A stretch of 64,000 nucleotides of DNA from Treponemataceae bacterium (GTDB taxonomy: Bacteria > Spirochaetota > Spirochaetia > Treponematales > Rectinemataceae), in the NCBI GenBank assembly GCA_963678065.2, contig CAXXVZ010000002.1, positions 416,001-480,000 on the forward strand, given 5' to 3'. Positions 7,697 to 38,675 of the stretch are shown in pieces (position 1 is the stretch's first letter; each line of letters opens with the position of its first letter). The position numbers were made by a program, and so were the translations under genes. The notes beneath the pieces were generated by a model. That model saw nothing but the letters and a program-made list of their open reading frames with translations, was not told where the DNA came from and made no database searches.

Positions 7697-9448
7697 TCAA
7701 GGCGCAGCGCGGGCCGCTCGAATTCGATTATATTCTTCTACCATGATGGCCAGGTCGGAGGGATCGGTATCTGCCCCTTCGTCGTTGGGCTTGAGCAGGG
7801 CAGCAGGGAGGCGGTCGCTCTCCGGGCCGAGCCCCTCACGCCGGTTGTATTCGCGGCTGGCAAGGGTGACTCTATTGGCGAAGCTCTCGAGATCATGCTT
7901 GCTCCAGTCGAGCCCGACGGCTCCGCGGATGAGGATTCCCAACTCGTCCCACTTTATGAAGTCCCGGAAGAAGCGGCAGAGGATCATGCAGTCGAAGATG
8001 CATGAACGATCCTCGTAGTCGATATGCTTTTCGGCCTTGCCGACGATCACTTCCGGTTTGATCTCCCCACTCAACTCGGCCTTGTAGAAGGTGCCGCGCA
8101 GATGGCAGGCGCCGCGGGCCGCTGTGGCGTAGGAGAGTCCCATGCCCTTGAGCACGCGCGGATCGAAACCTGCCGGTTCGAGGCCTTTTACGTGGACCGC
8201 GATGTCCTCCAGGCCCCATGCCTGTGCGGCCGATTTGATCCCGCCGGCCAGTATCTCCCCGACGCCCTCCCGCCGCGAGATTGCACCGAAGAGCTCGGCC
8301 ATGCGGTCGCTCTGCCCGTAGTCGATGTCGAAATCAGACTTGCCGCGCAGTCTCGCCTCGACGGCGAAGGCGCTGATGTTGCCGGCGCTCATCGTATCGA
8401 TGCCGAGCCTGTCGCAGACGTCGTTGAGCCATGCGACCTCCTCCAGCGGCGCTACGCAATTGAGGCCGCCCAAGGCGTAGATCGTCTCGTACTCCGGACC
8501 GTCCAATTCGAGGCCGGCGTGGCGACCGGCCTTGAGGCGGCTTTTTTTGGTACACTGGAGAAAACAGCTCGGACAACCGTGGTTGGACACCTCGAAATGC
8601 TCGTTCATGTAGTCGGACGAGAGTTCCTGCCAGCGGTCGAAAGTGCCGGATTGCCAGTATCGTGTCGGAAAGCATTTCATGGCATTGGTCACGACGACCT
8701 GGCTGGGCGTTCCGCGCCTGCGGTAGTTTTGGGTGATCGGGGAATCCTTCCACTTTTGCGCCAGGATCCGGTTGAATTCCAGGAGGGCCGCCTTGTCGGC
8801 CGCCGCGACCCGGAGAGAGCCCGCGAAGGTCATGGCCTTGACGCCCTTGGCTCCGAGCACGGCGCCCATACCGCCCCGGCCGAGGCTGCGCCAATGGTCG
8901 CTCTTGATGCAGGCGAAGGCAACCCTGTTTTCCCCGGCCGGGCCGATGGTGAGGGCGGACGCGCCCGCGGCCGAGCGGGCGAGGACATAGTCCTCCGTGG
9001 CGTAGGTTTCCCAGCCCTGTAGCTCTCCGGCTTCCTCGAAGGATACTCCCTTCTCGTCGAAGCGCAGCCAGACCGGTCGGTCGCTTGCGCCTCTCAGCAC
9101 GATCGCGTCGATGCCGCAGCCTTTGATCTTGTCGACAGCCGTTCCCCCGCAGTAACTCTCGCCATAGCCCCCGGTGGCCGGGCTCTTGGCGTAGGCGCCG
9201 AATCGCGCCCGGCCCCAGACCTTGGTATGGGAAAGCGGTCCGGCAGCCAGCACGAAGATCGCCTCGGGAGCCAGCGGATCGACCCCTGGTGGATTCTCAT
9301 CGAGAAGGAGATGTGTACCGAGCCCCTTTCCGCCCAAGGTGCGCTCGAGTAGGCTGTCCGGCAGTTCGGCGAATTCGAACCGACGCCGTGTCAGATCGAC
9401 CCGCAATATCCTCTTGAAAAAGCCGTTCACGAAAGAGGTTGCCGCCAT
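7697..9448 (-). CDS. aor: Aldehyde:ferredoxin oxidoreductase (W/Mo-pterin AOR family)
   Basis: 'GRGGMGAVLGAK', 'CPSCFLQC', 'GPEYET', 'GIDTMSAG', 'RGACHL' motifs; GGAGG RBS before ATG 9448. Confidence 0.92.
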   Translation of the reverse strand: MAATSFVNGFFKRILRVDLTRRRFEFAELPDSLLERTLGGKGLGTHLLLDENPPGVDPLAPEAIFVLAAGPLSHTKVWGRARFGAYAKSPATGGYGESYCGGTAVDKIKGCGIDAIVLRGASDRPVWLRFDEKGVSFEEAGELQGWETYATEDYVLARSAAGASALTIGPAGENRVAFACIKSDHWRSLGRGGMGAVLGAKGVKAMTFAGSLRVAAADKAALLEFNRILAQKWKDSPITQNYRRRGTPSQVVVTNAMKCFPTRYWQSGTFDRWQELSSDYMNEHFEVSNHGCPSCFLQCTKKSRLKAGRHAGLELDGPEYETIYALGGLNCVAPLEEVAWLNDVCDRLGIDTMSAGNISAFAVEARLRGKSDFDIDYGQSDRMAELFGAISRREGVGEILAGGIKSAAQAWGLEDIAVHVKGLEPAGFDPRVLKGMGLSYATAARGACHLRGTFYKAELSGEIKPEVIVGKAEKHIDYEDRSCIFDCMILCRFFRDFIKWDELGILIRGAVGLDWSKHDLESFANRVTLASREYNRREGLGPESDRLPAALLKPNDEGADTDPSDLAIMVEEYNRIRAARAAP

Positions 9449-9464
9449 AAGCCTCCCCCTTTGT

Positions 9465-10622
9465 TCATATCGCCACCTGCTCAATCAGGTCCGAAGGCAC
9501 GCTCATCGAAGGCAACTCCAGTCCATCGCAGAAGAAGTGGATCGATCCATCCAGCCACTTCGCGACAGTGACCTTTCTTTTCCGGTCCGTTTTGCCTCTA
9601 CCGCGGGAAATCAGGAGATGTCTGTATTTCTCGGGCTCCGGCAGATTTTCGACGCTGATTTCGCACTCCGTGCTGTAGCAGAAAATCCTGCGGAGGTCGG
9701 TGCCATCGAGTATCGGAACGTGGTAATCCTCGAGTCCCCGGGGTTTACCGGCTACAAGGGCGTTGAGCGAGACCACCTTCCGGCAGCGGAAAAAGATGTC
9801 GGTCTCAACAATGGATTCAGTTTGTGCGTCTTCCAGTGCCTTCTTCAGTTTCTCTATTTCACTTTCCATCCGGCGCGCGATGCATGTACTCTTTGCAGGG
9901 TTCAAGGGAAGAATATCGATTCCGAGTTTATCGCAGGCTTGGGCGAAAAAAGTGCGCTGCTCCAACCCCATCAATTCCTGTTCCAGGGTCAGATGGATCC
10001 GCTTATCGGTTATCAACGCTTTCTGACAGCAGAGCGAGACAGGTATCCCGTATCGTTCCAGCCATGCCCAAAGGAGTCGCATGGGAACTGAAATGCCCTT
10101 GTCGTGTTCGATCGCTGCCAGAGTTACTCCGGTATCGTCATCCTGGAGCAGATGGAGCGAGCAAATCGTCGCGTCTTTTTTGAGCCATTGTCCCTGGACG
10201 GCGAGGTGCACAAGGCATCGGCCGAACCCGCCGGCTTGCCCGACCTCCTGCCTTGCGTCGGTTCTCGATCGTTGTCCCATCCACAGACCCCGGGACATCA
10301 ACCATCGCCTCAGAGTCTCATGGTCGACGGCTATTCCCTGTGCGTTCAGGGTCTTGCAGAACTCCGTCGGACCCAAGCCTCTGTAGGGACCTGCATACTG
10401 CGAGAGCACCCATTCCTTGAAGGATCCCGCGTAGGACCTGTTCGATTGACGGCCTTTGTTTCGATGCTCGATACCCCGGGGTCCCTCTTCCAAATACCGT
10501 TTCCAGAGCCGGCGCATCTGCCTGTAGGAGAGATTGAGCTCGTCTGCGGCGGCACTCAGAGATTCTCTTCCGGCACGGACCTCTTCGAGAATCGTACACC
10601 GCAAATCCAAGGTTCCCCTCAT
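9465..10622 (-). CDS. Catalytically degenerate ISNCY/IS1202-like transposase derivative (intact HTH region, DDE motifs lost); candidate transcription factor
   Basis: The N-terminus 'LSYRQMRRLWKRY.EEG..G..H.NKGR.SNR' and 'GPT...HETLRRWL...GLW', and C-terminal 'D.H.P...DL..IFC' and 'V.KWLDGS.H' match this transposase family. The catalytic motif positions read HLAVQ, LCCQK and PAKSTCIARR. Confidence 0.8.
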   Translation of the reverse strand: MRGTLDLRCTILEEVRAGRESLSAAADELNLSYRQMRRLWKRYLEEGPRGIEHRNKGRQSNRSYAGSFKEWVLSQYAGPYRGLGPTEFCKTLNAQGIAVDHETLRRWLMSRGLWMGQRSRTDARQEVGQAGGFGRCLVHLAVQGQWLKKDATICSLHLLQDDDTGVTLAAIEHDKGISVPMRLLWAWLERYGIPVSLCCQKALITDKRIHLTLEQELMGLEQRTFFAQACDKLGIDILPLNPAKSTCIARRMESEIEKLKKALEDAQTESIVETDIFFRCRKVVSLNALVAGKPRGLEDYHVPILDGTDLRRIFCYSTECEISVENLPEPEKYRHLLISRGRGKTDRKRKVTVAKWLDGSIHFFCDGLELPSMSVPSDLIEQVAI

Positions 10623-10682
10623 TCAGTCACCTCCGATCTGGAGCAGGTAAGCAACCGGGTGCCAACATTTTTTGCACAAGGA

Positions 10683-10711
10683 ATGGTATGGCTGAATTTG
10701 TTGTTTGTCAA
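10683..10711 (-). promoter_or_regulatory. Sigma70 promoter of the transposase-derived gene and aor
   Basis: TTGACA-17-TACCAT on the minus strand; perfect SD GGAGGTGA just before ATG 10622. Confidence 0.7.
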
Positions 10712-10733
10712 TTGTTAATTGTTAACAATTGAC
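10707..10733. promoter_or_regulatory. Palindromic operator, GntR-like
   Basis: GTCAATTGTTAA-ttg-TTAACAATTGAC with perfect 12-bp arms; overlaps the -35 of the minus-strand promoter. Confidence 0.65.
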
Positions 10734-10782
10734 GTGTCCGTCTATTTGCAAGAACATTTGTTATACTTAAATAATAACCGAT

Positions 10783-10846
10783 TGACAGATCTAAAGAGTT
10801 TAATCAACAGCAAAAATTGACCGCGTAAGACTTTGATAGATAGCAT
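10783..10846 (+). promoter_or_regulatory. 18-bp directional site 1 plus promoter
   Basis: TGACAGATCTAAAGAGTT (10783-10800), then TTGACC (10817)-18-TAGCAT. Confidence 0.6.
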
Positions 10847-10882
10847 CTACCGTATTTGAAAGATCGTCATCAGGAGGCGTGT

Positions 10883-12190
10883 ATGAAGAGATCACTTTTC
10901 TTGGCTTTTGCCGCGATCATGTTCTTCTCGTTGATATCCGATATCACGGCGCAGTCGGCGAAAAAAGTCGCACTGACCTGGTGGGTGTATCCCCGCTTTA
11001 CGACCGCGGGCAAGGACCCCGGCGTCTACGAGCAGGAGATCGCCGACCGGTACTGCAAGGAGAATCCGAACGTCTCCATAAAGGTCGAGGCGCTCTCCTA
11101 CAACGGCGGGCCAGCCAAGGTCAATGTCGCGATCGCCACAGACTCCATGCCAGACTTGCTGATCGACGATCCGATCCGGCTCATCGCGGACTATGCGGCC
11201 CGGGGCGCCCTCGTTCCGATGGACGATGTCATCGACTTGAAGACCATCCAGCCCGGCTTCCTCGCGGACTGCTACATGGATGGCAAGATGTATATGTACC
11301 CAATTTCGGCGCTATGCTACTGCGTCGGCGTAAACAAAACAGCCTTCGAGAAGGCCAAGGCCCTCGACAAGTTGCCGCTAAACAGGCCTGATCGCAGCTG
11401 GACCTTCGACGAGTACACGAAGGCCCTCGAGGCCGTCAAAGGCTTGCCGGGCATGTACGCGACCGCCTTGTGGGCGGGGAACGAGCAGGGAGACTCCGCC
11501 GGGAGGCTGCTCGTCCAGAACTGGGGCGCGCAGCTCTTCTCTGCCGGCAACAAGCGCATCACCCTGAACGACGCGGCGGGCGTCAAGGGCATGGAGTGGC
11601 TCCTCAGTCTGAAGACGAAGGGACTGCTGGCGCCCGGCGTCGAGAGCCTGACCATGACGGACATGATCGACCTCTTCAACCAGGGGCGAGTCGCCGTTGG
11701 AACCTACTATTCGTCCGACCAATACGCGGTGCTCCTGGGCATGCAGAAGGAGAAGAAGGCCGCCGATTTCGAGCTGGTCTTCTTCCCCTATCCGACGGCG
11801 CCAGGGGTCAAGTCTGTGACCACCCTCGCGCAGACCGGGATCTCCGTGTTCAAGAACACCGATCCCGACAAGATCGCGGCGGCGAAGAAGTTCGCGAAAT
11901 GGGTCTGCACGACACCCGATATCGTCGCGATGTCGCAGGGACATATCCCCGCGGTCAAAGGCCTGCCCGCCCTTGGCGATACCAAGAACTGGTCCGAGCT
12001 CAAACTCATGGAGAAGTGGGGCGCCGCGAACTCAGTCTATTCCGGTCGCACGCTGAAGGGATTGTCCGAGATCAGGACCTTCTGGTTCCCGAATCTCCAA
12101 GCTATGTTCACCGGCGCGAAGACCCCCAAGCAGGCCCTCGACGACTTCGTGACAAGCGCGAACAAGGTGATGGAGAAGTATTACCCGTAA
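10883..12190 (+). CDS. Carbohydrate ABC transporter substrate-binding protein (CUT1)
   Basis: Signal peptide; SBP_bac_1-like 'MPDLL' and 'DGKMYMYP'; AGGAGG RBS. Confidence 0.9.
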   Translation: MKRSLFLAFAAIMFFSLISDITAQSAKKVALTWWVYPRFTTAGKDPGVYEQEIADRYCKENPNVSIKVEALSYNGGPAKVNVAIATDSMPDLLIDDPIRLIADYAARGALVPMDDVIDLKTIQPGFLADCYMDGKMYMYPISALCYCVGVNKTAFEKAKALDKLPLNRPDRSWTFDEYTKALEAVKGLPGMYATALWAGNEQGDSAGRLLVQNWGAQLFSAGNKRITLNDAAGVKGMEWLLSLKTKGLLAPGVESLTMTDMIDLFNQGRVAVGTYYSSDQYAVLLGMQKEKKAADFELVFFPYPTAPGVKSVTTLAQTGISVFKNTDPDKIAAAKKFAKWVCTTPDIVAMSQGHIPAVKGLPALGDTKNWSELKLMEKWGAANSVYSGRTLKGLSEIRTFWFPNLQAMFTGAKTPKQALDDFVTSANKVMEKYYP

Positions 12191-12213
12191 GTGCTTTCGA
12201 CGATCGCTGGCAT

Positions 12214-12269
12214 CGTACCCGGCGCCGAACCCTGTTTGCCGCAAGGCTGCGAGGGGGGCGCCGGGTACG
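12214..12269. other. GC-rich hairpin downstream of the SBP gene
   Basis: 13-bp arms CGTACCCGGCGCC ... GGCGCCGGGTACG. Confidence 0.5.
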
Positions 12270-12488
12270 CTCGTTCCGCGCAGCCCTCGAGCGGGGAAGT
12301 GCCTATGACATCGAGGGAGAGGGACAGCGCGCCCGGGCGCATGGCTCGCTTGAAAAGGCTTGAGAGCGCCTGCGGAAAGGGTCGCTCGGGACATACGGCA
12401 TTTTCGCGGGGCACACGAACCCGAGGGCTCTACGAGTCCGGAATGCTCCGCAAGCCCTCCGCGCCCGTCCGCCGCATGATCGGCGCGA

Positions 12489-12550
12489 TGACATTTCTAA
12501 AGAGCAGATGAGCCTGTCGCTTTGGCATATCCATGGGATTGCCCTATAGT
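12489..12550 (+). promoter_or_regulatory. 18-bp directional site 2 plus internal promoter
   Basis: TGACATTTCTAAAGAGCA (12489-12506), then TTGGCA (12522)-17-TATAGT. Confidence 0.7.
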
Positions 12551-12593
12551 GTGCCTGTCCAGAATGCCAGCGAAGCCGACGAGGAGCCAGCGG

Positions 12594-13478
12594 GTGCGTG
12601 AAAGAAAAGCGCGCGTCACGGGCAAGGAGATCGCGGCCGGCTATATCTTCGTCCTGCCGGCACTGCTATTCTTTCTTGTCTTTCAGATTTATCCCCTCTT
12701 CCGAACCGTGGCCCTGAGCCTCATGGAATACGCCGGCAAGTCCTTCCGTTTCGTCGGCCTCCAGAACTACCGCGACCTCGCCGCGAATCCCGTCTTCCTG
12801 AAATCGATCATCAACTCGACCCTCTTCGTCGTCCTGAACGTGCCTGTAATCATCGTTTTCGCCCTCGCCATTTCCTTCTTCATCTACCGCAAGTCGACAA
12901 GGTCACTCGGGTTCTACCGCATCGCCTTCTACCTTCCCTCGGTCGCGTCGATCGTCACGATCTGCATTGTCTGGAAGAACATGCTGAACCCGATAATGGG
13001 CCTGATCAACTATCTGACCGGCAGGATGGGAATACCGCCCATCAACTGGCTCGGGAGCAATTACGCCCTGGGTACCCTCTCCCTCATACTCTTCTCGATC
13101 AACGTCGGTATGTCGATCATTCTCTACATCGCCGCGATGCAGGGAATCTCTCACGAGATAACCGAAGCGGCGCTGATCGACGGCGCGAACAAGTGGACCC
13201 TCTTCGTGAGAATCATCATCCCTCTCGTGGGGCCGACGACGCTATTTGTCATAGTCATCAACACGATCAACCTCTTTCAGTCATTCGCCCTCGTGAATCT
13301 CATGACCAAGGGCGGTCCCTTCTATTCCACGACGACGATCGTATTCCAGCTCTACGAGACGGCTTTCGGACTCCAGAAATTCGGACTCGCCTCGGCGATG
13401 GGCATCTGTCTCGGAGTGATCATATCGCTTGTTTCGGTATTCCAGTTCAAGATCGCCGACAGGACCACAGGGTCCTGA
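12594..13478 (+). CDS. Carbohydrate ABC permease
   Basis: EAA motif 'EAALIDGA'; GTG start after GAGGAG (start uncertain). Confidence 0.9.
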   Translation: MRERKARVTGKEIAAGYIFVLPALLFFLVFQIYPLFRTVALSLMEYAGKSFRFVGLQNYRDLAANPVFLKSIINSTLFVVLNVPVIIVFALAISFFIYRKSTRSLGFYRIAFYLPSVASIVTICIVWKNMLNPIMGLINYLTGRMGIPPINWLGSNYALGTLSLILFSINVGMSIILYIAAMQGISHEITEAALIDGANKWTLFVRIIIPLVGPTTLFVIVINTINLFQSFALVNLMTKGGPFYSTTTIVFQLYETAFGLQKFGLASAMGICLGVIISLVSVFQFKIADRTTGS

Positions 13479-13500
13479 TCCGGTGGAAGGGAAAAGCCTC

Positions 13501-14349
13501 ATGCGCCAGGTACACGGAACGATAGACGGGACACGATGGAAGATCGCCGAGCGGGTCACCTCGGCGCTGATTTTCATTATCGCGCTGCTCTTCCTGTTCC
13601 CCTTCTACTGGACCTTGACGGGCGGGTTCAAGACTCGCTTTGACCTCATGGGCTTCGTCCCGCAATGGTTCCCCCTGCACCCGACGCTCGACAACTTCAC
13701 CAAGATATTCTCGAAGACCGGCGGACGCTGGCTCTTCAACAGCGTAGTCATGGCCAGTTCCTACACATTCCTGACGGTCCTCGTGTGCACGATGGCAGGC
13801 TACTCCCTCGCGAAGAAGCGCTTCCCGGGCAGGCAGATGATCTTCTGGATGTTCATCATGGTGATGGCGATACCGAAGAACACCATGCTCGTCCCCCTCT
13901 TCCTCCTCATAAAGGACCTCAGGATCGTGGACAACTATCTCGGCGTGATCCTTCCCTTCATAGCATGGCCCTTCGGCATATTCCTGATGAGGCAGTTCAC
14001 GCAGACCCTTCCCGACGAGCTCTTCGACGCAGCGAAGATAGACGGAGCTTCCGAATATTATATCTTCGTCAAGATAGTCGTTCCCCTCGTCGTTCCGGGG
14101 ATTATAAGTCTCTCGGTCTTTGCCTTCAGGGACAGCTGGAACGACTACTTCTGGCAACTCATCGCCCTGTCCCGCGGATCGATGAAGACTCTGCCATTGG
14201 GTATAGCGGCCATGATGGACGAGACTTTCGTCGAATACGGAATGCTCATGGCGGGGAGCGTTGTCGCCTCTCTTCCGATCATCATTGTCTTCCTCGTCTT
14301 CCAGAGGTATTTCACGGCGGGCATCGCGATGAGTGCCGTCAAAGGTTGA
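13501..14349 (+). CDS. Carbohydrate ABC permease
   Basis: 'DAAKIDGA', 'WNDYFW', C-terminal 'AVKG'. Confidence 0.9.
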   Translation: MRQVHGTIDGTRWKIAERVTSALIFIIALLFLFPFYWTLTGGFKTRFDLMGFVPQWFPLHPTLDNFTKIFSKTGGRWLFNSVVMASSYTFLTVLVCTMAGYSLAKKRFPGRQMIFWMFIMVMAIPKNTMLVPLFLLIKDLRIVDNYLGVILPFIAWPFGIFLMRQFTQTLPDELFDAAKIDGASEYYIFVKIVVPLVVPGIISLSVFAFRDSWNDYFWQLIALSRGSMKTLPLGIAAMMDETFVEYGMLMAGSVVASLPIIIVFLVFQRYFTAGIAMSAVKG

Positions 14350-15910: not shown

Positions 15911-16963
15911 TCATCTTCCCAACCCCTCCTCGAACATGGCGACGGCGTTTCCCATCGGCGTGTCCAGTTCGAGAAAGTGGGTAGGCGCGAGGATGTAGCC
16001 CGAGCCGCCCGAAGCGGCCACGATGCGTCGCGTTTCCTTTCGGACCTCATCGGGATTCCCGTGGGCCAATATGCTCTGGAGGCCTACCATACCGTGAAAA
16101 ACGATATGCCTCCCGAAATCCCTGAACAGCCCTCCGGCGTCCATACCCTCGGCCTCTACCTGTACGGCCTGGTAGATATCGAGACCCAGATCGATCCAAT
16201 GGGGGATGTGGGCGCGGTTCGATCCGCAGGAGTGGAGCATCACTTTCGCGCCATATTTGTGGCCAAGGTCGATGAAAGCCCTGAGCTTGGGCGCGAAGAC
16301 TGTTTTCCACGAATCTATGTTCATGAGGGGTCCGTTCTGGGTTCCGTAGTCGTCGCCAATCCAGAGCACGTCGATCTTGCCATTGGCCTTTCGCAGCGCC
16401 CGTTCGGCGACTTCGAGGAGTATCTCCTGCCGTTTCTCCAGGAGGGCGAGTCCCACCGGATCTTCGAGGGCTATATCGACGAGGACTTGCTCCATGCCCC
16501 GTCCGAAGGATGTGCCATTGATGAGGTCCATTATTCCTGGATGGCCAAACACGACGACATACTTGTCGCGGATGCGGTCGCAGCGGCTCTCAATGTCCGA
16601 AAAGTCAAAAAGGTCGGGCGAGGGCCACGGATACGCCTCGACCTCGTCCATGGACGAGATGTCCGCGAAAGGCCGATACTCGACCTCATCGTAGGTTCCA
16701 TAGATGTTGACGACGGGACGGCGACGGACTCCCCACATGTCCGTGAAGAAACCGCGCTCATCCTTTTCATAAGGAGCGCGGAAGTCGTGATGCATGAGGT
16801 GGCGGAAGTCTATGTCGAGGAGCTCAAGAGCCTCGTCGTAGCTGCCGGCCCCGAGGTGGCGGACGAGGCGCTCGGGAACTTGTCCCTCGGCGATGCAATC
16901 GATGGGCGGCCTGTCACAGCGTTCATGCTTCATCGTCGCCTCGAAACGCGAGCGGTGAGTCAT
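15911..16963 (-). CDS. Uroporphyrinogen decarboxylase/MtaA-CmuA family protein
   Basis: 'GDDYGTQNG', 'HSCG', 'GYILAPTH'. Confidence 0.85.
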   Translation of the reverse strand: MTHRSRFEATMKHERCDRPPIDCIAEGQVPERLVRHLGAGSYDEALELLDIDFRHLMHHDFRAPYEKDERGFFTDMWGVRRRPVVNIYGTYDEVEYRPFADISSMDEVEAYPWPSPDLFDFSDIESRCDRIRDKYVVVFGHPGIMDLINGTSFGRGMEQVLVDIALEDPVGLALLEKRQEILLEVAERALRKANGKIDVLWIGDDYGTQNGPLMNIDSWKTVFAPKLRAFIDLGHKYGAKVMLHSCGSNRAHIPHWIDLGLDIYQAVQVEAEGMDAGGLFRDFGRHIVFHGMVGLQSILAHGNPDEVRKETRRIVAASGGSGYILAPTHFLELDTPMGNAVAMFEEGLGR

Positions 16964-17997
16964 CGTTGAATCCGCCCCTCTGTCTCGCCGGCCGCCAGGG
17001 CGCGAACTTCGTCGAGCGAACAGAGATTGAAGTCGCCGGGAATCGAGTGTTTGAGGCAGGAGGCGGCTACGGCGAACTCGATGCAGTCCTGGAAGGAAAG
17101 CCCCGAGAGCATCGAGTAGATCAGACCGCCGGAGAAGGAATCCCCTCCGCCGACCCTGTCCACGATCGGTTCGATCATGTATTTCCTGCTCGAATAAACA
17201 GTTCTTCCATCGCAGAGCATGCCGCTCCAGCCATTCGCGGAGGCCGAGATGCTCTGTCTGAGCGTGGTCGCGACTGACTTGAATCCGAACTTCGCGGCGA
17301 GGCGCTTCGCGAGTTCGGCATAGGACTCTTCGGGGAGCAGACCCTTCGAGGAATCGCTGCTTTCGGCCTTCATGCCGAAGACTTTCTCGGCGTCCTCCTC
17401 GTTGCCGATGAGAACATCGACACGCTCCATGATGCCGGGCATGATGCGCTGGGCTTCCTGCGGCGACCAGAGCTTGGCGCGGTAGTTGAGGTCACAGCTG
17501 ACGGTGAGGCCGGCAGCCTTGGCCGCGACCAGGGCTTCGGATAGCCGCGCCCGCGGCTTCTCTCCGAGGGCGGGCAGTGTTCCCGAGAAGTGGAACCAGT
17601 CCTTGCCGGCGCATATCTCGTCCCAGTCGTAGTCTCCCGGACCCGAATCGCAGATGGCGCTCCGGGAGCGGTCGTATATGATCTTGGAGGGCCGCTGAGC
17701 CGCGCCGGTCTCGAGGTAGAAGAGGCCGAGTCGTTCACCGCCCCTCGCCACGTGGTCGACATTGACTCTGAAACGGGAGAGGTAGTCCAGACAGGCCTGT
17801 CCTATCTCGTTCGCGGGAACCTTGGAGACCACATAGGCCTCCATGCCGAAGTTGACAAGCGATACCGCGGCGTTCGCTTCAGCCCCCGTGTAGCGGACAT
17901 CGAAACTGTTCGCCTGGACGAAACGCTCGACGCCGGGCGGCGCGAGTCTGAGGAGGAGTTCTCCGAAGGTGACGATTTTCTTCTTGTCCGTGTCCAT
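16960..17997 (-). CDS. kdgK: 2-keto-3-deoxygluconate kinase (PfkB family)
   Basis: 'FGELLLRL', 'DLNYR', 'DRVGGGDSF'; AGGAGA RBS. Confidence 0.85.
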   Translation of the reverse strand: MDTDKKKIVTFGELLLRLAPPGVERFVQANSFDVRYTGAEANAAVSLVNFGMEAYVVSKVPANEIGQACLDYLSRFRVNVDHVARGGERLGLFYLETGAAQRPSKIIYDRSRSAICDSGPGDYDWDEICAGKDWFHFSGTLPALGEKPRARLSEALVAAKAAGLTVSCDLNYRAKLWSPQEAQRIMPGIMERVDVLIGNEEDAEKVFGMKAESSDSSKGLLPEESYAELAKRLAAKFGFKSVATTLRQSISASANGWSGMLCDGRTVYSSRKYMIEPIVDRVGGGDSFSGGLIYSMLSGLSFQDCIEFAVAASCLKHSIPGDFNLCSLDEVRALAAGETEGRIQR

Positions 17998-18044
17998 CCC
18001 GTTCTCCTGTGTTCGAGCCCGCCCGGCGGATGTCCGCTCGGACA

Positions 18045-18890
18045 TCATTGTTTCACGGCTCCCGCGGTCAGCCCGGCGGTTATCTGCTTCGCGGCGACGA
18101 AATACATGACAGTCACCGGGACGCTTGCGATCATGGAAGCGGCAAACAACCTTCCCCAGGCCACCTGGTCGCCGATTATCAGGTCGGCTATCGCGAGCAT
18201 GACTGTGAAGCGTTTCTGGCTGTTGATGAGGATGAAGGCCATGAGATAGTCGTTCCAGACTCTGGTGAAGGTGTAGATGGCCGTGGCCACGATCCCCGGC
18301 GCCGCCACCGGAACGATAATCTTCATGATAATTGTAAATCGCGAGTAGCCATCGAGGAGAGCCGCTTCCTCGAGCTCGCGTGGGATGCTCTTGAGATACG
18401 TGATGAATATCCAGGTCGCATATGGAATGGATAGCACAGGATATACGAAGAACAGGGACCCGGTGGTATTGCTGATGCCGAGTTTGGACAAGAGGACGTA
18501 GAAGGGGATGAACAGCATGAACAGTGGTATGAGGTAGGTGAAGAGCACGAACTGGGCCATGATCATCTTGCCCCTCATCTTCTGCCTGCCGATCGCGTAG
18601 CCAGCGAGAAGGCTCACGAAAATCGTGATGAAGGTCGAGCCTCCGGAAATGTAAATGGAATTGAGCAGGCTGCGCATGAAAGCGCCGTTGGTCAGTATCC
18701 AGGCATAATGATCGAAAATGACCTTTCCGGGCCAGAAGGTCGGGATCCTGCCGATTATCTCCCTCGTGGGCTTGAGTGACGATATTGCCAGCCAGTAGAT
18801 GGGGAAGAGCGTCCAGATCAGGAGCATCAGGGCGAAGAAGTAGATTGCCAGGAGCCGCAGTTTCCTGTACAAGGCACCCCTGTCGATCAT
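18045..18890 (-). CDS. Carbohydrate ABC permease
   Basis: 'EEAALLDG', 'WNDYL'. Confidence 0.9.
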   Translation of the reverse strand: MIDRGALYRKLRLLAIYFFALMLLIWTLFPIYWLAISSLKPTREIIGRIPTFWPGKVIFDHYAWILTNGAFMRSLLNSIYISGGSTFITIFVSLLAGYAIGRQKMRGKMIMAQFVLFTYLIPLFMLFIPFYVLLSKLGISNTTGSLFFVYPVLSIPYATWIFITYLKSIPRELEEAALLDGYSRFTIIMKIIVPVAAPGIVATAIYTFTRVWNDYLMAFILINSQKRFTVMLAIADLIIGDQVAWGRLFAASMIASVPVTVMYFVAAKQITAGLTAGAVKQ

Positions 18891-19894: not shown

Positions 19895-21205
19895 TCAGTT
19901 TTTCGCTTTTTTCAAATCGTTGACGATCTTTCGGCATTCGTCGGCGAAGCGCTTCGCGGCGGCCTCGACCGTCATCTTGTCCGTCACCATCCAGGAATGC
20001 AGCTTGTTGGGGAACATCTGGTTCAGCACCACGCCCTGTATCGGCGTCATGGCCTTGCTGGGATACTCCTCCGAGTAACCGGTCTCGGCCGACTCGATGA
20101 CGGCCTTGTTCACAGGATCGTTCGTGAAGAACGGATCGGTCAGGCTGCGGGCATATACCGGCATGGAGAGGGGGGCGAAGGCTTTGACCCAGGGATCGTA
20201 CCAACTCTTGTCCAGGACGTACTTCGTCAGTTTCTTCGCGGTGTCCTGGTTGGTCGGATTCTTAAAGACCATGAAGCCGCTGCCCACCAGTATGGAGAAC
20301 CTGCCCTTGGGTCCGGCCGGCCAGGGCGCGACGCCCGTGTTGGCCCAGATATCCGGGGCGTCCTTCTTGAGCGACGCGGCGATCGAGGGAAGATTGAGGA
20401 TGAAGCATGCCGATCCCGAAAGGTAGGCCTTGTTGTTGTACATGTCGTCGCCAGTGACGCCATCGGGATTGTTCGATTCCGCGATGATGTCGGCGATCAC
20501 CTTGTAGGCCTGGATGGATTGCGGGGAATCAGCTATTACCTCGTCATCCTTGATAATGCCGCCGCCGTAGCTCCAGAGGACGGAGTTCATCATGTTCTTG
20601 TGGTCCGTCGCAGTGGGGCCAAAGCCGAACGCGACGCCCCAGATGCCGTCCTTGGGGGAGGTGGTCGCCTTGGCCTGAACGCGCAGTTCTTCCCAGGTCT
20701 TGGGCGGAGCGGTGAAACCAGCCTTGGCGAGCAGGTCCTTCCTGTACCACATCGGGTAGCACTGTAAGGTGTGCGGGACAGCATAGAACTTGCCGTTGAA
20801 AGCTCCCCAGTTCTTGGCCGAGCCGAACATCTTGCCGTTGTCCTTTTCGACTTCGGCGAGGACGTCGCTTACATCCACGATAAGTCCCTTGTCCGCGTAC
20901 TCGACACATTTGGATTGATACGTGTAGCAGACATCCGGCGGCTGCTTCGCCTCTACGGCGGCCGCGAGCTTCTGCATGAGAACGGCATTATCCATGATTT
21001 CGCAGGTCACGTTGATGCCATTCTTCGCGCCGTATTCCTCGAATCTCGCCTTCAGCGCGTCATTCGCCTCGGGAACGAATGTTTTCTGAACCCAGACGAT
21101 CAGGGATTTGGGTTTCGCCTGCGCTCCTACCATTGAAGTAGCAGCCAGTGCCAGCGCTACCACCACGATCAGAAGCTTCGTTCTATTGTTCTTCAGCATT
21201 GTCAT
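19895..21205 (-). CDS. Carbohydrate ABC substrate-binding protein
   Basis: Signal peptide; 'PPDV', 'WYRKDLL', 'PKTWEEL'; GAGGAGG RBS. Confidence 0.9.
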   Translation of the reverse strand: MTMLKNNRTKLLIVVVALALAATSMVGAQAKPKSLIVWVQKTFVPEANDALKARFEEYGAKNGINVTCEIMDNAVLMQKLAAAVEAKQPPDVCYTYQSKCVEYADKGLIVDVSDVLAEVEKDNGKMFGSAKNWGAFNGKFYAVPHTLQCYPMWYRKDLLAKAGFTAPPKTWEELRVQAKATTSPKDGIWGVAFGFGPTATDHKNMMNSVLWSYGGGIIKDDEVIADSPQSIQAYKVIADIIAESNNPDGVTGDDMYNNKAYLSGSACFILNLPSIAASLKKDAPDIWANTGVAPWPAGPKGRFSILVGSGFMVFKNPTNQDTAKKLTKYVLDKSWYDPWVKAFAPLSMPVYARSLTDPFFTNDPVNKAVIESAETGYSEEYPSKAMTPIQGVVLNQMFPNKLHSWMVTDKMTVEAAAKRFADECRKIVNDLKKAKN

Positions 21206-21432
21206 TCAGATACCTCCTCGAAAAGGGCTTAGTGTCCGCTACCCGGATTACAAGGTTCCTCTGAACGCTTGAAATCCTCCGCTATCCCCTTGTTTCTTCC
21301 ATCGTTCTCCCGGTCCCAATCCCGAGACAGACGTTGATTCGTTCTGGGCAGGCAACCACAGGGGCTTGGTCGGCCAGAATCTGTGCTACGCGCTCCGTTG
21401 ATTGTTCCTCCTTGCTCCTTTTCCACGCCTGC

Positions 21433-21494
21433 ATGCTAAACGAGCCACATTCCTGGGTCAAAATGCCGGATGAATACACTCGATAGAATTGTCA
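21433..21494 (-). promoter_or_regulatory. 18-bp directional site 3 plus promoter
   Basis: Minus strand TGACAATTCTATCGAGTG (21494-21477), then TTGACC (21461)-17-TAGCAT. Confidence 0.75.
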
Positions 21495-21547
21495 TGACGG
21501 ACCGCCGCCAGGAAAGCGCGACAGCCTCCTTGCCTGAGTTTTTTCGC

Positions 21548-23264: not shown

Positions 23265-24161
23265 CTATTTTGACCGGGCCATGAAACCCCTGACCTGTTC
23301 TTTCTGTTCCTGGCTGAGCGGTTCGAGAGGGGAGACTGGCTTCCCGGAACCGAAACCGATAGCGGCCAATGCCTGCTTGATCCCGGAGATCCAGTTCGGG
23401 CCGGCGCGGACGATGTTTTCGCGGAGGACCTCGATGCGCGCCTGAGCCGCGGCGAGCTCGTCCCAATCGCCCCGACCCGCCGCCCGCCAGGCGCGGATAA
23501 AGGTCTGCGGCTCCACATTGGCGCAGACCGGTACGACGCCCCGCGCGCCCGCCCTCAATCCTTCAGCGATGCCGGGCTCGTCACCCATGAAGACCTTGAG
23601 GCCATGGGGTCCGCCTTCGCCAAGGAGACGACGGAAATACCCCATGTCGCCCGAGCTTTCCTTGCAATACTCGATCGTGCCGAGCCGGGCGAGTTCCGTC
23701 ACAACCTCGACGGGCACCTGGGAGCCGGTGCAGCTCGGTATGTTGTAGGCGATCATCTTCATTCCCCGGGCACCGGCCGCGCACTCCCGGAACAGGCGCA
23801 GATACTCGCCTGGCGTACGCAGAGTGATGTAATACGAGGGGGCGACGACGAAGTACTCGAAACCCGAGGCCGCGAGTATTTCGACGCGTTCCAGTATCCG
23901 TCTGGTGGAACTGTCCATGGCGCCGCCCAGAAGAGGCAGCTTGTCTCCCGCCTCGTCATGGGCGATCTCGATCATGCGCCGCCATTCGACTGCGGTGAGC
24001 AAGGGGCCCTCTCCGGCCGAGCCGCCCACGAACAGGCCATCGACGCCCGCGTCGACCAGGCGTCGCATCATCAGCCTGAAGGCCGCCTCATCCACGCGAT
24101 CCTCCGCGTCGACCGGCGTGATCACCGGAACGATGACACCAGACAATTCGTTTCGCTTCAT
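23265..24161 (-). CDS. DHDPS/NAL family aldolase or dehydratase
   Basis: 'GGSAGEG', 'YNIPSCTG', 'KESSGD'. Confidence 0.88.
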   Translation of the reverse strand: MKRNELSGVIVPVITPVDAEDRVDEAAFRLMMRRLVDAGVDGLFVGGSAGEGPLLTAVEWRRMIEIAHDEAGDKLPLLGGAMDSSTRRILERVEILAASGFEYFVVAPSYYITLRTPGEYLRLFRECAAGARGMKMIAYNIPSCTGSQVPVEVVTELARLGTIEYCKESSGDMGYFRRLLGEGGPHGLKVFMGDEPGIAEGLRAGARGVVPVCANVEPQTFIRAWRAAGRGDWDELAAAQARIEVLRENIVRAGPNWISGIKQALAAIGFGSGKPVSPLEPLSQEQKEQVRGFMARSK

Positions 24162-24181
24162 ATCAGTCCTTCCTTCGTCCG

Positions 24182-25327
24182 TCAGACTGCGGTGTTCAGG
24201 GGATACTTGCCGGCTGCGAGCGCCTCCTCGAACAGCGCAATCACGTTTTCCGGTGGAACGTCGGGCTGGATGCAATGCACGGCGGAGCAGATGTAGCCGC
24301 CTCCTGGCCCCAGGTCCGCAATCCGGCGGCGAACCTCCGCGCGCACCTCCGCCGGCGTGCCTCTGGGCAGGACGGCCTGCGTGTCGATCCCTCCGCAGAA
24401 GGAAAGTCGCCTGCCAAACTCCCGTTTCAGGCGGGCCGTGTCTCCCATGTCGCCCGCCGAGACCTGCACCGGGTTCAGGAGCTCCACGCCGAGTTCGATC
24501 AGGTCGCCGATCAGGGGATAGATGTTCCCGTCGGTGTGGTAGAAGATTTTTGCTTTCGTCTTTCGCCTGATCGCGGACATGATCTCCGCGTGGAAGGGCT
24601 TGATGAGCCCGCGATACATGCCCGGCGAGATCAAGAGGGTATCCTGGCCCGCCAGATCGTCGCCCATGACAAGGACGTCGATGCAGTCGCCGGCCTCTTT
24701 GAGCAATCCTTCCACGGCCGCGAGCTGGAGGTCGGTCACCTTGCGCATCAGCGCTCTGGCGAAGTCCGGGTCCCCCGCCAGGTCCATCATCCAGTTCTCG
24801 ATGCCGCGCAGCATGCCGCAGTACTCGAAGGGCGACACGCCAGAAAGCGCCACGACGGCGTAGCCGGAATCCTGGATCTCCCGCGCCCTGGCCGCCATGC
24901 CGGCGAAGCGGACAGGATTGGCGAGGTCAGGCCAGGGGTGCCGCGCGATGTCGTCGATCGCGGCCTGCCCGAGAGGTGGCTTGGAGATCTCGTAATAGTG
25001 GCCGCCGGGCGCGCGAGACCAGGGGATGCCCCAGCCGTCCACGAAGGCGTCGCCGGGCAGTTCCCGCTCGTTGACCGTCGGCGCCGGGCCTGCCGTCAAC
25101 ATGCGCCCGTCGGATCCGAAACGCCGCATGACTTCCTCGTCGAGCAGGGAGTACTGGAGGGCGCGCCAGAAAACCTTGGTCTGGCTACTGATATGGAGGT
25201 GAGCCTTGAGACGATCGTAGGCCGCCGCCAGCATGGTTGTGGCGCCGGATGCGCCGATGAAAATCGGCACACGGTCCGGCTCCTCGTGATTCAAGGCGCA
25301 GAGCACCCGTTCGCGCGAGGTCATCAT
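24182..25327 (-). CDS. UroD/MtaA-CmuA family protein
   Basis: 'HEEPDRVP', 'GDDLAGQ', 'HTDG', 'HCIQPDVPPEN'. Confidence 0.88.
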   Translation of the reverse strand: MMTSRERVLCALNHEEPDRVPIFIGASGATTMLAAAYDRLKAHLHISSQTKVFWRALQYSLLDEEVMRRFGSDGRMLTAGPAPTVNERELPGDAFVDGWGIPWSRAPGGHYYEISKPPLGQAAIDDIARHPWPDLANPVRFAGMAARAREIQDSGYAVVALSGVSPFEYCGMLRGIENWMMDLAGDPDFARALMRKVTDLQLAAVEGLLKEAGDCIDVLVMGDDLAGQDTLLISPGMYRGLIKPFHAEIMSAIRRKTKAKIFYHTDGNIYPLIGDLIELGVELLNPVQVSAGDMGDTARLKREFGRRLSFCGGIDTQAVLPRGTPAEVRAEVRRRIADLGPGGGYICSAVHCIQPDVPPENVIALFEEALAAGKYPLNTAV

Positions 25328-29623: not shown

Positions 29624-30733
29624 TCAGTAAGTTCCGATTTCCAGACCCCGCTCGACGAAATGACGGTAGGTTGCGTACTCGACCTTATGGCTCACGCTGT
29701 GGTCGCTCTGCAGCACATACCCGCTGCCCGCCATGGCCGCCGGAAGCTTTTTCTCCAGCTCGGCATCGACCAGCGCGAGGTCGTTCGTTTCCAGGACCCT
29801 TTCGTCCATCCCTCCGATCAGGGCTATCTTTTCGCCGAAATTGCGCTTGATCCTCACGAGGTCCATGCCCGCTTTGACCTCGATGGGTTGGAGGCAATTG
29901 ATACCTGCCTCGATGAGATGCGGGATGAGCGCCTCGACGAAGCCGTCGCAGTGCAGGACGACAGGCAGGCCGCGGCTGTGGGCGAAATCGAAAAGTCGCT
30001 TGTGGGCGGGAAAGATAATCTCTCTATACATGTGCGGGGACATGAACGGAGTGCCCTTGTAGCCGAGATCATCCCAGACCCAGAGCCCATCCGGCAGGCC
30101 TTCTCTTTCGAATAGTATTTCCAGCAACTTGATCGTCACTTCGGCGAAAGTCAAAGCCATCTCGCTCACCCACTCGCCATCGAGGGCCATACCGGCGAGC
30201 AAGTGTTCGTGGCCGCACATCGGGGACATGAGATCGAAGGCTGCGATCGTACCGCAGTTGAAGAACAGGGAATCGCGCGCGCACTTCGCGCGCAGGTTCC
30301 GGTAGTGCTCGAAATCGATGCGCCGTTCGTAGCTCCGCTCGTCCCGCAGATGGGGCAGGATGAGCTCTTCCCAACTCTGACGATCCCTGACGGTGAAATC
30401 CACGTGCTCGGGAGCGCCCGAACCGTTTTTCAGCCAGCGCAGGTAGGCGCCATTCCCGTCCCGTATCAGCTTGACCGAATCATTCTCCTCGACGACGGTC
30501 TCGCCGGCATCGAGGTCGGCCATGAGATTCACCGCCTTCCACGACATCGGCGTGACTTCCCCGCCCGTCCGCCGGATGTCGAGCCCGAAATGGTCGCTCG
30601 CCGCATCCGGCCTTTCCAGATATCCCTGCTCTGTCCAAGCCTGAGCGGTTTCTCCCCAAAAGACCTCGAACAGGCCTATCCTGTCGACCGGTTCGTGCCT
30701 GAGTATCCGGGAGAATCTCTCCTTTCCGTCCAT
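29624..30733 (-). CDS. UroD/MtaA-CmuA family protein
   Basis: 'WDDLGYK', 'HCDG', 'SDHSV'. Confidence 0.85.
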   Translation of the reverse strand: MDGKERFSRILRHEPVDRIGLFEVFWGETAQAWTEQGYLERPDAASDHFGLDIRRTGGEVTPMSWKAVNLMADLDAGETVVEENDSVKLIRDGNGAYLRWLKNGSGAPEHVDFTVRDRQSWEELILPHLRDERSYERRIDFEHYRNLRAKCARDSLFFNCGTIAAFDLMSPMCGHEHLLAGMALDGEWVSEMALTFAEVTIKLLEILFEREGLPDGLWVWDDLGYKGTPFMSPHMYREIIFPAHKRLFDFAHSRGLPVVLHCDGFVEALIPHLIEAGINCLQPIEVKAGMDLVRIKRNFGEKIALIGGMDERVLETNDLALVDAELEKKLPAAMAGSGYVLQSDHSVSHKVEYATYRHFVERGLEIGTY

Positions 30734-32418: not shown

Positions 32419-32479
32419 ATCATAAACCCGGAATGATCCCTTGGCCAGAAAAGCCCACGCTCACTCGATAGAAATGTCA
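32419..32479 (-). promoter_or_regulatory. 18-bp directional site 4 plus promoter
   Basis: Minus strand TGACATTTCTATCGAGTG (32479-32462), then TGGCCA (32447)-17-TATGAT. Confidence 0.7.
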
Positions 32480-32514
32480 GGGCGAAGAGAATCCCCGCGC
32501 CGGTCATTTCTGCT

Positions 32515-32577
32515 GGTCATTTCTAATGAGTGTTATCACCTGCGCCGCTTTATCATGAAGGCACCATGTTGTATCGT
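32515..32577 (+). promoter_or_regulatory. 18-bp directional site 5 plus weak promoter
   Basis: GGTCATTTCTAATGAGTG (32515-32532), with a partial tandem copy GGTCATTTCT at 32502. Candidate promoter TTTATC (32549)-17-TATCGT is ambiguous. Confidence 0.55.
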
Positions 32578-32613: not shown

Positions 32614-33408
32614 ATGAAAGTCGACTTGTCGGGGCGCGTAGCCATCATCACGGGCGCCTCCGGGGGGATCGGGAAGGCTATCGCCCGTTGTCTCCTGGAG
32701 AACGGGGCCATCGTCGTCAACGCCGATCTCGACAGGGAAGGCGGCCAAAAGGCGCTCGAGGAACTTTCCGGGATCGGCCCCTTCGAGTACCGCGACACGG
32801 ACGTAGCATCGATGGCGAGTGTCCAGGCCCTCGTCGACGGTGTCATAAAGGACCATGGCAGGATCGACATACTCGTGAACAACGCGGGCGTCAATATTGC
32901 CGGGCACAAGCGTGCCGACATCGACGGGTTTCCGGACGACGAGTGGGAACGCATCCTCTCGGTGGACCTGGACGGCGTGTACAACTGTTCGAAGCTCGTG
33001 GCACGGGAAATGATCGCGAAGTCATCGGGAAGGATCGTCAACATCGGCTCGGTCTTCGGCCTCGTTCCCGCGCGGAAGCAGATCGCATTCACGGCGGCCA
33101 AGGCCGCCGTGCACAACATGTCCCGCTCCATGGCGCTCGAACTCGCGCCGCACGGGATCCTCGTGAACGCCGTCGCTCCGGGATCGATCCAGCTTGAAGG
33201 CACGAAGAGCCTGTTCTACGTCAAGGGAGCCGACTTCGACGACATGACGAGCCGCATGCTTTCTCACATTCCCCTCGGTCGTCCCGGCGTGCCCGAGGAG
33301 ATCGCGGGGATCGTCGCCTTCCTCTGCGCAAAGGAGAGTTCCTACATCACAGGTCAGGTCATCGCCGTGGACGGAGGATGGACCTGTGGATATACGAGGG
33401 ATTTCTAG
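32614..33408 (+). CDS. SDR family oxidoreductase
   Basis: 'TGASGGIG', 'NNAG'; the YxxxK position reads FTAAK. Confidence 0.9.
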
Positions 33409-34176: not shown

Positions 34177-34260
34177 CCGGGTGTAAGGCGCTCTGCCTCG
34201 TTCTCTGCCTCGTCTCCTTCCTGAACGACAGCGTCGGGCATTCCGCTGTGGGTCCGGGCG

Positions 34261-34323
34261 GGACATTTCTAAGGAGCAGGGCGAGCCTGCACCTTGTGGT
34301 TCCCGGACCTGCAAACCTATCAT
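34261..34323 (+). promoter_or_regulatory. 18-bp directional site 6 plus promoter (likely leaderless mRNA)
   Basis: GGACATTTCTAAGGAGCA (34261-34278), then TTGTGG (34294)-18-TATCAT; ATG 7 nt later. Confidence 0.65.
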
Positions 34324-36304: not shown

Positions 36305-36313
36305 GGTCATCCC

Positions 36314-38566: not shown

Positions 38567-38605
38567 CACTCGATAGAAATGTCAGCATGACAATTCTATC
38601 GAGTG
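38567..38605. promoter_or_regulatory. Back-to-back 18-bp directional sites 7 and 8 at a divergent promoter
   Basis: CACTCGATAGAAATGTCA-gca-TGACAATTCTATCGAGTG. Plus promoter TTGACC (38621)-17-TAGCAT; minus -35 TTGACT at 38549 with a weak -10. Confidence 0.75.
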
Positions 38606-38675
38606 TACCAATCCGGCATTTTGACCCAAAAGTGCGGCTCGTCTAGCATGCAAACGTGGGATGGAGCAAGGGGAA

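Follow-up and report, generated by a model that had tools for sequence, protein, structure and literature searches.

The question raised by this locus is what a transposase gene is kept for once its catalytic residues are gone. The gene lies in a 64,000-nucleotide stretch of a 5.27-Mb Treponemataceae genome (assembly GCA_963678065.2, contig CAXXVZ010000002.1, positions 416,001 to 480,000), referred to as the window; it derives from an insertion sequence (IS) of the IS1202/ISNCY family and carries the source annotation 'transposase' or 'hypothetical protein'. The encoded protein, termed the dead protein, is probably a transcription factor acting, likely as an activator, on boxes derived from transposon ends at no fewer than eight promoters of an adjacent sugar-acid catabolic island. 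A regulon of end-like boxes in this island, now the likely role, was not foreseen in a preliminary description of the gene. The gene, its product, its promoter and the gene downstream were delimited as follows.

9465..10622, minus strand: dead IS1202/ISNCY-derived gene, 385 amino acids (aa), ATG start, no internal stops
Predicted domains of the dead protein: helix-turn-helix (HTH) units, residues ~2-110; degenerate RNase H-like core, ~133-290; C-terminal beta domain, ~300-370
10683..10711, minus strand: promoter-like element of the dead gene, TTGACA (10711-10706), 17-nt spacer, TACCAT (10688-10683)
7697..9448, minus strand: aldehyde:ferredoxin oxidoreductase gene (aor), start 16 nt past the dead-gene stop

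As the preliminary description had stated, the open reading frame (ORF) is uninterrupted, the promoter-like element and a Shine-Dalgarno sequence, GGAGGTGA, stand ahead of it, and three catalytic motifs are lost. Alignment with relatives retaining the catalytic triad (DDE-intact) confirmed the loss column by column: 'VQ[MFL]DGS' of the intact relatives reads 'LVHLAV' (D1 to L140), 'YCD' reads 'CCQ' (D2 to Q200) and 'SPQAKGRVER' reads 'NPAKSTCIAR' (E to A249). The third-column residue is R under one alternative alignment and acidic in none, and no acidic residue stands at any of the three positions. The N-terminal region is family-like, as had been said: Pfam finds HTH_28, HTH_29 and HTH_32 alone, in residues 5-108, with no rve (integrase-core) domain in the dead protein, and the family-wide invariant HTH residues S32, R34, R38, G47, H53 and T103 are retained. 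The protein is collinear with IS1202/ISNCY transposases end to end (31-37% identity to the DDE-intact proteins aligned), and the NCBIfam model transpos_ISNCY_2 (NF033594) matches over nearly its full length (residues 11-366 to model positions 2-358 of 368) with a score of 148 bits, under the curated cut-off of 250.

One source (10.1101/2022.12.17.520857) gives the family, with its ISTde1, IS1202 and ISAba32 subgroups, a DD pair between D1 and D2 and a Q after E. The likeness of the dead protein to this family covers the collinear HTH, RNase H-like core and C-terminal regions and D161 of the DD pair; 'QDDDTG' keeps the aspartates of that pair, D161 being invariant in 66 sequences, and residue 7 after the E column, read off the alignment, is I where the family has Q. 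Structure prediction, proposed earlier as a check, places an RNase H-like core in the protein: the AlphaFold model (pLDDT 76) has two HTH units, a core with the order beta1-3/alpha/beta4/alpha/beta5 and a C-terminal beta domain. Its best Foldseek matches were IstA (E 1.5e-13), TnsB, MuA and retroviral integrases, and a sequence search of solved structures returned a single weak match, the HTH of TnsB (E 0.0011). The whole transposase architecture, RNase H fold included, is thus predicted to be retained despite the lost triad.

The preliminary description held that the gene lacks IS ends and leaves no space for a right one, and both points were borne out. No inverted repeats were found flanking the gene, and there is no room for a right end because the stop codon (9465-9467) is followed after only 16 nt by the aor ATG at 9448, with a ribosome site, GGGGGAGG, in between; the longest aor ORF, from TTG at 9484, would overlap the stop. 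In five true IS relatives the transposase stop lies 72-248 nt from the right IS end. Because this 16-nt gap contains no terminator-like site, the dead gene and aor are probably co-transcribed. Neither a second copy of the gene nor an intact member of the IS1202/ISNCY family was found in the 5.27-Mb window genome. The dead gene therefore differs from its family in lacking the DDE triad, the Q after E, terminal inverted repeats and TGT termini, in scoring below the curated cut-off, and in being single-copy within a catabolic operon; it fails the defining features of the family (triad, ends, mobility and curated score), with the HTH region present.

Homologues were taken as the 120 best matches among 5.8 billion proteins, of which 79 have exactly D-D-E and 41 lack the triad; with these 41 forming one group, the loss goes beyond chance. 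The gene is accordingly not a singleton without orthologues, its DDE-less family comprising at least 41 clusters at 90% identity; the catalytic positions of the 41 proteins are non-acidic, bar an occasional E or D at the third column. In a 66-protein tree, one branch (SH-aLRT 100) separates these 41 from 25 DDE-intact proteins, and the same split (41 vs 34, SH-aLRT 100) was obtained from 75 proteins, the nine more distant additions being taken as DDE-intact with only L002 verified by residue; loci L163-L182 were likewise counted DDE-intact by tree side, L002 and L211 alone having individually verified residues. Since a single branch holds all 41 and the ancestor must have been active, the triad was lost once, and diversification followed. 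A profile of the 41 proteins ranks 40 of them first, and its next 38 new matches are all DDE-intact. Scores against NF033594 are cleanly bimodal: all 11 DDE-less proteins scored fall at 100-175 bits and all six DDE-intact ones at 381-420 bits. The four closest homologues (P0002-P0005) are 50-81% identical to the window protein; a metagenome-contig search gave identities of 31-38% among the matches listed, and in the ESM Atlas every cluster retrieved bore the name 'ISNCY family transposase'.

Of 14 further top-ranking sequences examined from a library of 1.84 billion 50%-identity representatives, 10 are without the triad as well, and two of these belong to a more distant subgroup. This pair, P0179 and P0181 (26-27% identical to the window protein, ~385 aa), has 'WLFAYK' and 'LLFSRT' in place of the first catalytic aspartate and E or G at the second catalytic position, and may be a further or deeper DDE-less branch. 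Among the best 80 loci of a species-representative genome collection, four are DDE-less (L003-L006), all in Spirochaetota metagenome-assembled genomes, and the family member is single-copy in all five genomes concerned (G000, G431-G434). The family is rare: samples of 400 genomes from the phylum and 400 from the window's order yielded no DDE-less member, the one strong match in the order being DDE-intact. Some multi-copy true IS relatives with in-frame stops were observed in two other Spirochaetota genomes, G055 and G070 (loci L181 and L182), with one TGA, or one TGA, two TAG and one TAA; these are ordinary IS decay, in contrast to the intact dead family.

Selection for a non-catalytic role rather than decay, as had been suggested, is supported by a dN/dS of 0.108 at dS 0.68 for L003/L004 (86% identical and the sole pair unsaturated for this measure), by the single DDE-less clade, and by strain variation. 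A 17-kb contig from another run, 99.4% identical to the window over 9000-12200, differs in the dead gene at 15 positions (12 synonymous, 3 non-synonymous, no indels), and a second contig, ~96% identical, has no indels in the coding region. Mean pairwise identity in the DDE-intact clade is 0.64 for the core and 0.51 for the HTH; in the two DDE-less subclades it is 0.63/0.59 for the HTH and 0.48/0.43 for the core. The dead gene is under purifying selection and is not decaying, and in the DDE-less family the strongest constraint has moved from the catalytic core to the HTH region. Single copy, immobility, orthologues in several genomes and purifying selection are the usual criteria of a domesticated transposase, and the dead gene has all of these.

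A function for the retained HTH region is suggested by the ends of mobile relatives. True ISs of 1.3-1.6 kb were observed in three phyla (L012-L018, L021-L028, L031-L036, L051/52, L063/64, L164-L166). Each end has a TGT terminus (16 of 16 ends) followed by two copies, ~25 bp apart, of a ~19-bp repeat, AACTCnTTAGAAATGTCmC. The subterminal repeat ACTCGATAGAAATGTCCCC occurs twice per end in true ISs of Hydrogenedentota, Acidobacteriota and Spirochaetota, and was also found as inverted pairs in the intergenic region ahead of the aldolase-kinase operon in L003-L005. A weight matrix derived solely from eight true ISs of other organisms (30 end repeats) was run over both strands of the 5.27-Mb genome. 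The top four matches, six of the top seven and seven of the top 14 lie in the window at 12.5-38.6 kb, which is 0.5% of the genome; 51 positions genome-wide score 13 or more. The 19-bp box consensus is cACTCgaTAGAAaTGTCA. The pattern CTCNWTAGAAWTGWC, derived from those sites, has all seven of its genome-wide matches in this segment, and the 10-mer TAGAAATGTC four of six. The window boxes are listed below.

12488..12506, minus strand: box A, score 23.6; 15 nt upstream of TTGGCA-17-TATAGT, before the first permease gene
21477..21495, plus strand: box B, score 19.0; 15 nt upstream of TTGACC-17-TAGCAT; directed at ABC binding-protein gene 2
32462-32480, plus strand: box C1, score 20.7; between divergent KDPG-aldolase and SDR genes (pair 32462..32532)
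32514-32532, minus strand: box C2, score 16.1; between the same divergent genes
34260..34278, minus strand: box D, score 23.2; 15 nt upstream of TTGTGG-18-TATCAT, before the E1alpha/E1beta/E2 genes
38567-38585, plus strand: box E1, score 20.7; between 2-hydroxyacid dehydrogenase and UxaE-like genes (pair 38567..38605)
38587-38605, minus strand: box E2, score 19.0; between the same two genes
10782..10800, minus strand: eighth, degenerate box, score 13.4; in the intergenic region of the dead gene and the ABC (ATP-binding cassette) operon, 16 nt upstream of TTGACC-18-TAGCAT (10817-10846, plus strand) of the ABC binding-protein gene

None of the eight window boxes has TGT at the terminus-equivalent place (flanks read by eye), so that only the binding part of the end survives, not the cleavage terminus, and because no intact IS of this family resides in the genome, the boxes are not ends of resident elements. 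Two box-promoter modules, at 21410-21495 (minus strand) and 38587-38649 (plus strand), are near-identical over ~60 nt ahead of different operons, with the layout box, 15 nt, TTGACC, 17 nt, TAGCAT, and look like a duplicated regulatory cassette.

The placement of the boxes relative to promoters, taken throughout as consensus matches, was evaluated for 18 boxes (eight in the window, ten in L003-L006), with the -35 hexamer required to start 13-17 nt from the ACTC end of the box and a 16-18-nt spacer. On that side a promoter-like pair with at least 9 of 12 consensus matches follows 10 of the 18 boxes, and one with at least 8 follows 13; on the opposite side none of the 18 reaches 8, and 0.19% and 1.4% of random genome positions reach at least 9 and 8, respectively. 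Every box faces a promoter-like pair, and where boxes are paired between divergent genes, each is oriented to its own promoter. The genes behind the window boxes are ABC transporter 1 (binding protein and permease), ABC transporter 2, KDPG (2-keto-3-deoxy-6-phosphogluconate) aldolase, SDR plus GntR, the E1/E2 dehydrogenase, 2-hydroxyacid dehydrogenase and the UxaE-like operon with DUF386. Boxes in other genomes precede URO-D-like, 2-hydroxyacid dehydrogenase, DUF386, GH2 glycosidase, KARI-like and xylose-isomerase-like genes, one box beside an SDR gene pointing away towards an unannotated ORF. Gene types that recur behind boxes across genomes are ABC sugar transporters, KDPG aldolase, URO-D-like, 2-hydroxyacid dehydrogenase, DUF386, SDR and GH2.

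Boxes and dead gene also occur together. Matches to the pattern and to a reversed-pattern control number 11/4, 11/3, 19/2 and 12/3 in G431-G434, where they cluster on the contig that carries the dead gene. Matches in 40 same-family genomes lacking the gene are at background level (157 vs 122 for the control), the listed ones scattered and nearly all with two mismatches (three with one), and 22 lying beyond the list. The sites thus recur at fixed promoter positions of functionally related genes, together with the dead gene, as would those of a local transcription factor.

The dead protein is proposed as the binder of these boxes because they match the end repeats of active relatives, because its invariant HTH residues are kept, and because these genomes contain no active family member. 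Its HTH units would still recognise the ancestral end sequence, end repeats stripped of their termini would have become fixed at about -60 of island promoters, and binding would regulate transcription. The fixed orientation and spacing of the boxes argue for a class-I-type activator: with the box centre near -60 and a strict orientation, the sign is presumed to be activation. Candidate signal inputs are the degenerate core, or control of the dead gene's own promoter through a palindrome described below.

The main alternative is that the dead protein binds the same boxes as a repressor, retaining a transposase's pairing of two ends, synapsing inverted pairs (C1/C2, E1/E2 and those of L003-L005) and looping or occluding divergent promoters until an inducer releases it, and we regard this as possible though rather doubtful. 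Inverted box pairs with their inside ends facing each other occur in three divergent promoter regions of the window and in L003-L005, L209 and L210. Sugar-acid regulons are also classically repressor-controlled: KdgR, UxuR and ExuR, of the IclR and GntR families, exert local control over transporters, 2-keto-3-deoxygluconate (KDG) kinase, KDPG aldolase and dehydrogenases. The dead gene resembles these in its proposed local control of sugar-acid genes and differs in family and in its boxes, which are not their operators. However, the single boxes A, B, D and 10782-10800 are just as strictly spaced and oriented to one promoter, and all boxes lie clear of the predicted -35, -10 and start regions.

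A second alternative concerns the dead gene's own promoter, where a palindrome was identified.

10706..10734, no strand assigned: palindrome GTCAATTGTTAA-ttg-TTAACAATTGAC, containing the motif TGTTAACAATTGAC(A)
9884-9898 in L003, 9890-9904 in L004, 9899-9913 in L005 and 9908-9922 in L006: motif TGTTAACAATTGACA

The motif TGTTAACAATTGACA is common to the upstream DNA of the dead gene in all five loci, where it is the sole invariant block in otherwise unalignable sequence (exact in three loci, one mismatch in L006, an overlapping triplicate in the window), and it overlaps the -35 box, which its core palindrome, TTGTTAACAA, abuts. The motif is unique in the window genome with up to one mismatch allowed; the window copy has a 7-nt duplication (AACAATT), giving a palindrome with 12-nt arms. 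It starts 96, 96, 81, 93 and 105 nt before the start codon in the five loci, and the left termini of true ISs lie 96-98 nt before the start codon, at about the same distance; that TGTTAACAATTGACA may be a remnant of the IS left end is an unproven idea, the sequence similarity being weak.

On this alternative, the dead protein would be a domesticated DNA-binding protein with another role, either control of itself and aor via TTGTTAACAA or an architectural one, and the boxes would be relics of ISs or of miniature inverted-repeat transposable elements, bound by another factor or by nothing; we consider this unlikely. In its favour, the element that accompanies the gene most strictly is the own-promoter palindrome and not a box; TTGTTAACAA occurs at three genome sites, the other two in unrelated AT-rich contexts, and two diverged variants with 15 intergenic differences each have no change within 10704-10732. 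The island also contains other regulators. But relics would not, in 13 of 18 cases, stand at a set distance and in a set orientation to a promoter, would not cluster in 0.5% of the genome, and would not turn up again beside similar gene families in five genomes without an active family member. That the gene is a decaying IS relic, or an active transposase using other residues, is scarcely credible: the annotation as 'transposase' or 'hypothetical protein' and one assembly with two frameshifted fragments of an 81% homologue are opposed by purifying selection on an old, diversified, single-copy family, by the missing IS ends with no room for a right one, and, for activity, by the non-acidic catalytic positions of the 41 proteins, bar the occasional third-column E or D.

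Several observations weigh against the proposed regulator. Two GntR/FCD regulators are encoded in the island, and the tight E1/E2 box pair forms a palindrome that another regulator could in principle bind. Autoregulation through boxes was considered and not supported, no box scoring 9 or more overlapping the dead gene's own promoter. In G432 and G433 a few strong boxes are remote from the dead gene. The gene is accessory, not being found in 68 other genomes of its own family; neither it nor the adjoining binding-protein gene was found in the 40 same-family genomes searched, from which the island is taken to be accessory as well. Orthology between the two dead subclades is not certain, because the window protein is 35-40% identical to those of L003-L006 while neighbouring kinases are 70-75% identical. 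In one metatranscriptome (n=1), two 151-nt contigs, 87-91% identical, cover parts of the gene, which is too weak a basis for a claim of expression. Finally, P0161 and P0162 (cluster of P0002), both from a single 15-kb metagenome contig, are pieces of the 81% homologue (146 and 113 aa) with frameshifted tails and otherwise identical to it; the split could be a sequencing or assembly error or a real pseudogene.

Taken more broadly, we lean, if only slightly, towards the view that a bacterial DDE transposase and its own end sites were co-domesticated, the activator and the boxes at about -60 of a dozen promoters wiring a ~30-kb hexuronate/sugar-acid regulon conserved across a diversified Spirochaetota family. 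The predicted target boxes correspond to the subterminal end repeats of active IS1202/ISNCY members. Domestication of a transposase together with its end sequences is a textbook route of regulatory innovation in eukaryotes, where FHY3/FAR1 and SETMAR are transposase-derived transcription factors using former terminal-repeat sites. The resemblance is that a transposase DNA-binding domain and end-derived sites are recruited together into a gene-regulatory network; FHY3/FAR1 and SETMAR differ in belonging to other superfamilies and to eukaryotic hosts. Eukaryotic factors of this kind, with former terminal-repeat sites, are treated in 10.64898/2026.08.24.746577.

The bacterial domesticated examples surfaced by the literature search were RNA-guided TldR and still-catalytic RAYT. 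TldR proteins (10.1101/2023.11.30.569447) are reported to be nuclease-dead, RNA-guided repressors derived from TnpB. As is proposed for the dead protein, a nuclease encoded by a bacterial transposon became inactive and was taken up as a transcription factor acting on host genes; TldR, however, derives from an accessory RuvC nuclease and is targeted by a guide RNA, whereas here a DDE transposase is predicted to be targeted by its HTH to former end sites. TnpA_REP/RAYT (PMC8266576) is reported to be a domesticated transposase of prokaryotes, present in single copy and associated with short repeated DNA sites; it is a Y1 (HUH) enzyme that remains catalytically active on REP, and the present case is a dead DDE enzyme with promoter-linked boxes. 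No bacterial DDE transposase acting as a transcription factor with end-derived operators was found in a full-text literature search. The whole circuit (dead DDE enzyme, boxes, promoters and target genes) can be read from sequence and, if true, would be a directly testable bacterial case with a DNA-binding specificity, the 19-bp box, predicted in advance. It also carries a warning for annotation, as some genes named 'ISNCY family transposase' are probably host regulators, and checks of catalytic residues combined with scans for end motifs can reveal such regulons elsewhere.

The genes of the island and their neighbours are given below.

10883..14349, plus strand: ABC sugar transporter 1 (binding protein 10883-12190, permeases 12522-13478 and 13429-14349), divergent from the dead gene
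16960-18048, minus strand: PfkB kinase 2, orthologue of a dead-gene flank in L003-L006, 68-71% identical
19895-21205, minus strand: ABC binding-protein gene 2
21548-about 22600, minus strand: PfkB kinase 1, orthologue of a dead-gene flank in L003-L006, 69-75% identical
22588-about 23230, minus strand: KDPG aldolase, orthologue of a dead-gene flank in L003-L006, 63-64% identical
23265-24275, minus strand: DHDPS-family gene, orthologue of a dead-gene flank in L003-L006
24182-25327, minus strand: URO-D-like gene, orthologue of a dead-gene flank in L003-L006
31731-about 32396, minus strand: further KDPG-aldolase gene, divergent from the SDR gene
32614-33408, plus strand: SDR gene, followed by a GntR/FCD gene at 33505-34176
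about 34331-37429, plus strand: E1alpha/E1beta/E2 2-oxoacid dehydrogenase genes
37531-about 38502, minus strand: 2-hydroxyacid dehydrogenase gene
38661-40409, plus strand: UxaE-like gene, followed by TAL_FSA, SDR, DUF386 and FAA-hydrolase genes

In all, the island contains three ABC systems, an enolase-superfamily enzyme, an Ldh_2 gene and the two GntR/FCD regulators, together with the dehydrogenase and UxaE-like genes listed; no Rfam families were found over 9-40 kb. The downstream aor would fit the sugar-acid theme if cleavage by the aldolase yields an aldehyde, as non-phosphorylative sugar-acid routes suggest it may. In L003, L004 and L006 the dead gene is flanked by two KDPG-aldolase/PfkB-kinase pairs, with an ABC sugar transporter and SDR, DHDPS-family and URO-D-like genes in the neighbourhood, and in L005 by two PfkB kinases; the window orthologues of the L003-L006 flanking genes all lie within 15 kb. 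At L004 8098-12852, as in L003 and L006, the dead gene sits exactly amid the tandem aldolase/kinase pairs; in L004 the aldolase copies are ~54% and the kinase copies ~53% identical to each other's window orthologue, and the dead-gene stop is ~28 nt from the second aldolase gene.

Between the binding-protein gene of ABC transporter 1 and its first permease gene lies a 330-nt gap (12191-12521), in which the covering ORFs look spurious and which contains box A and an apparent internal promoter. Paralogous URO-D-like genes were observed in sugar-acid clusters at 15911-16963, 24182-25327 and 29624-30733 of the window (all minus strand) and likewise in L209, L210 and L006 (6689-7831), some of them directly behind boxes.

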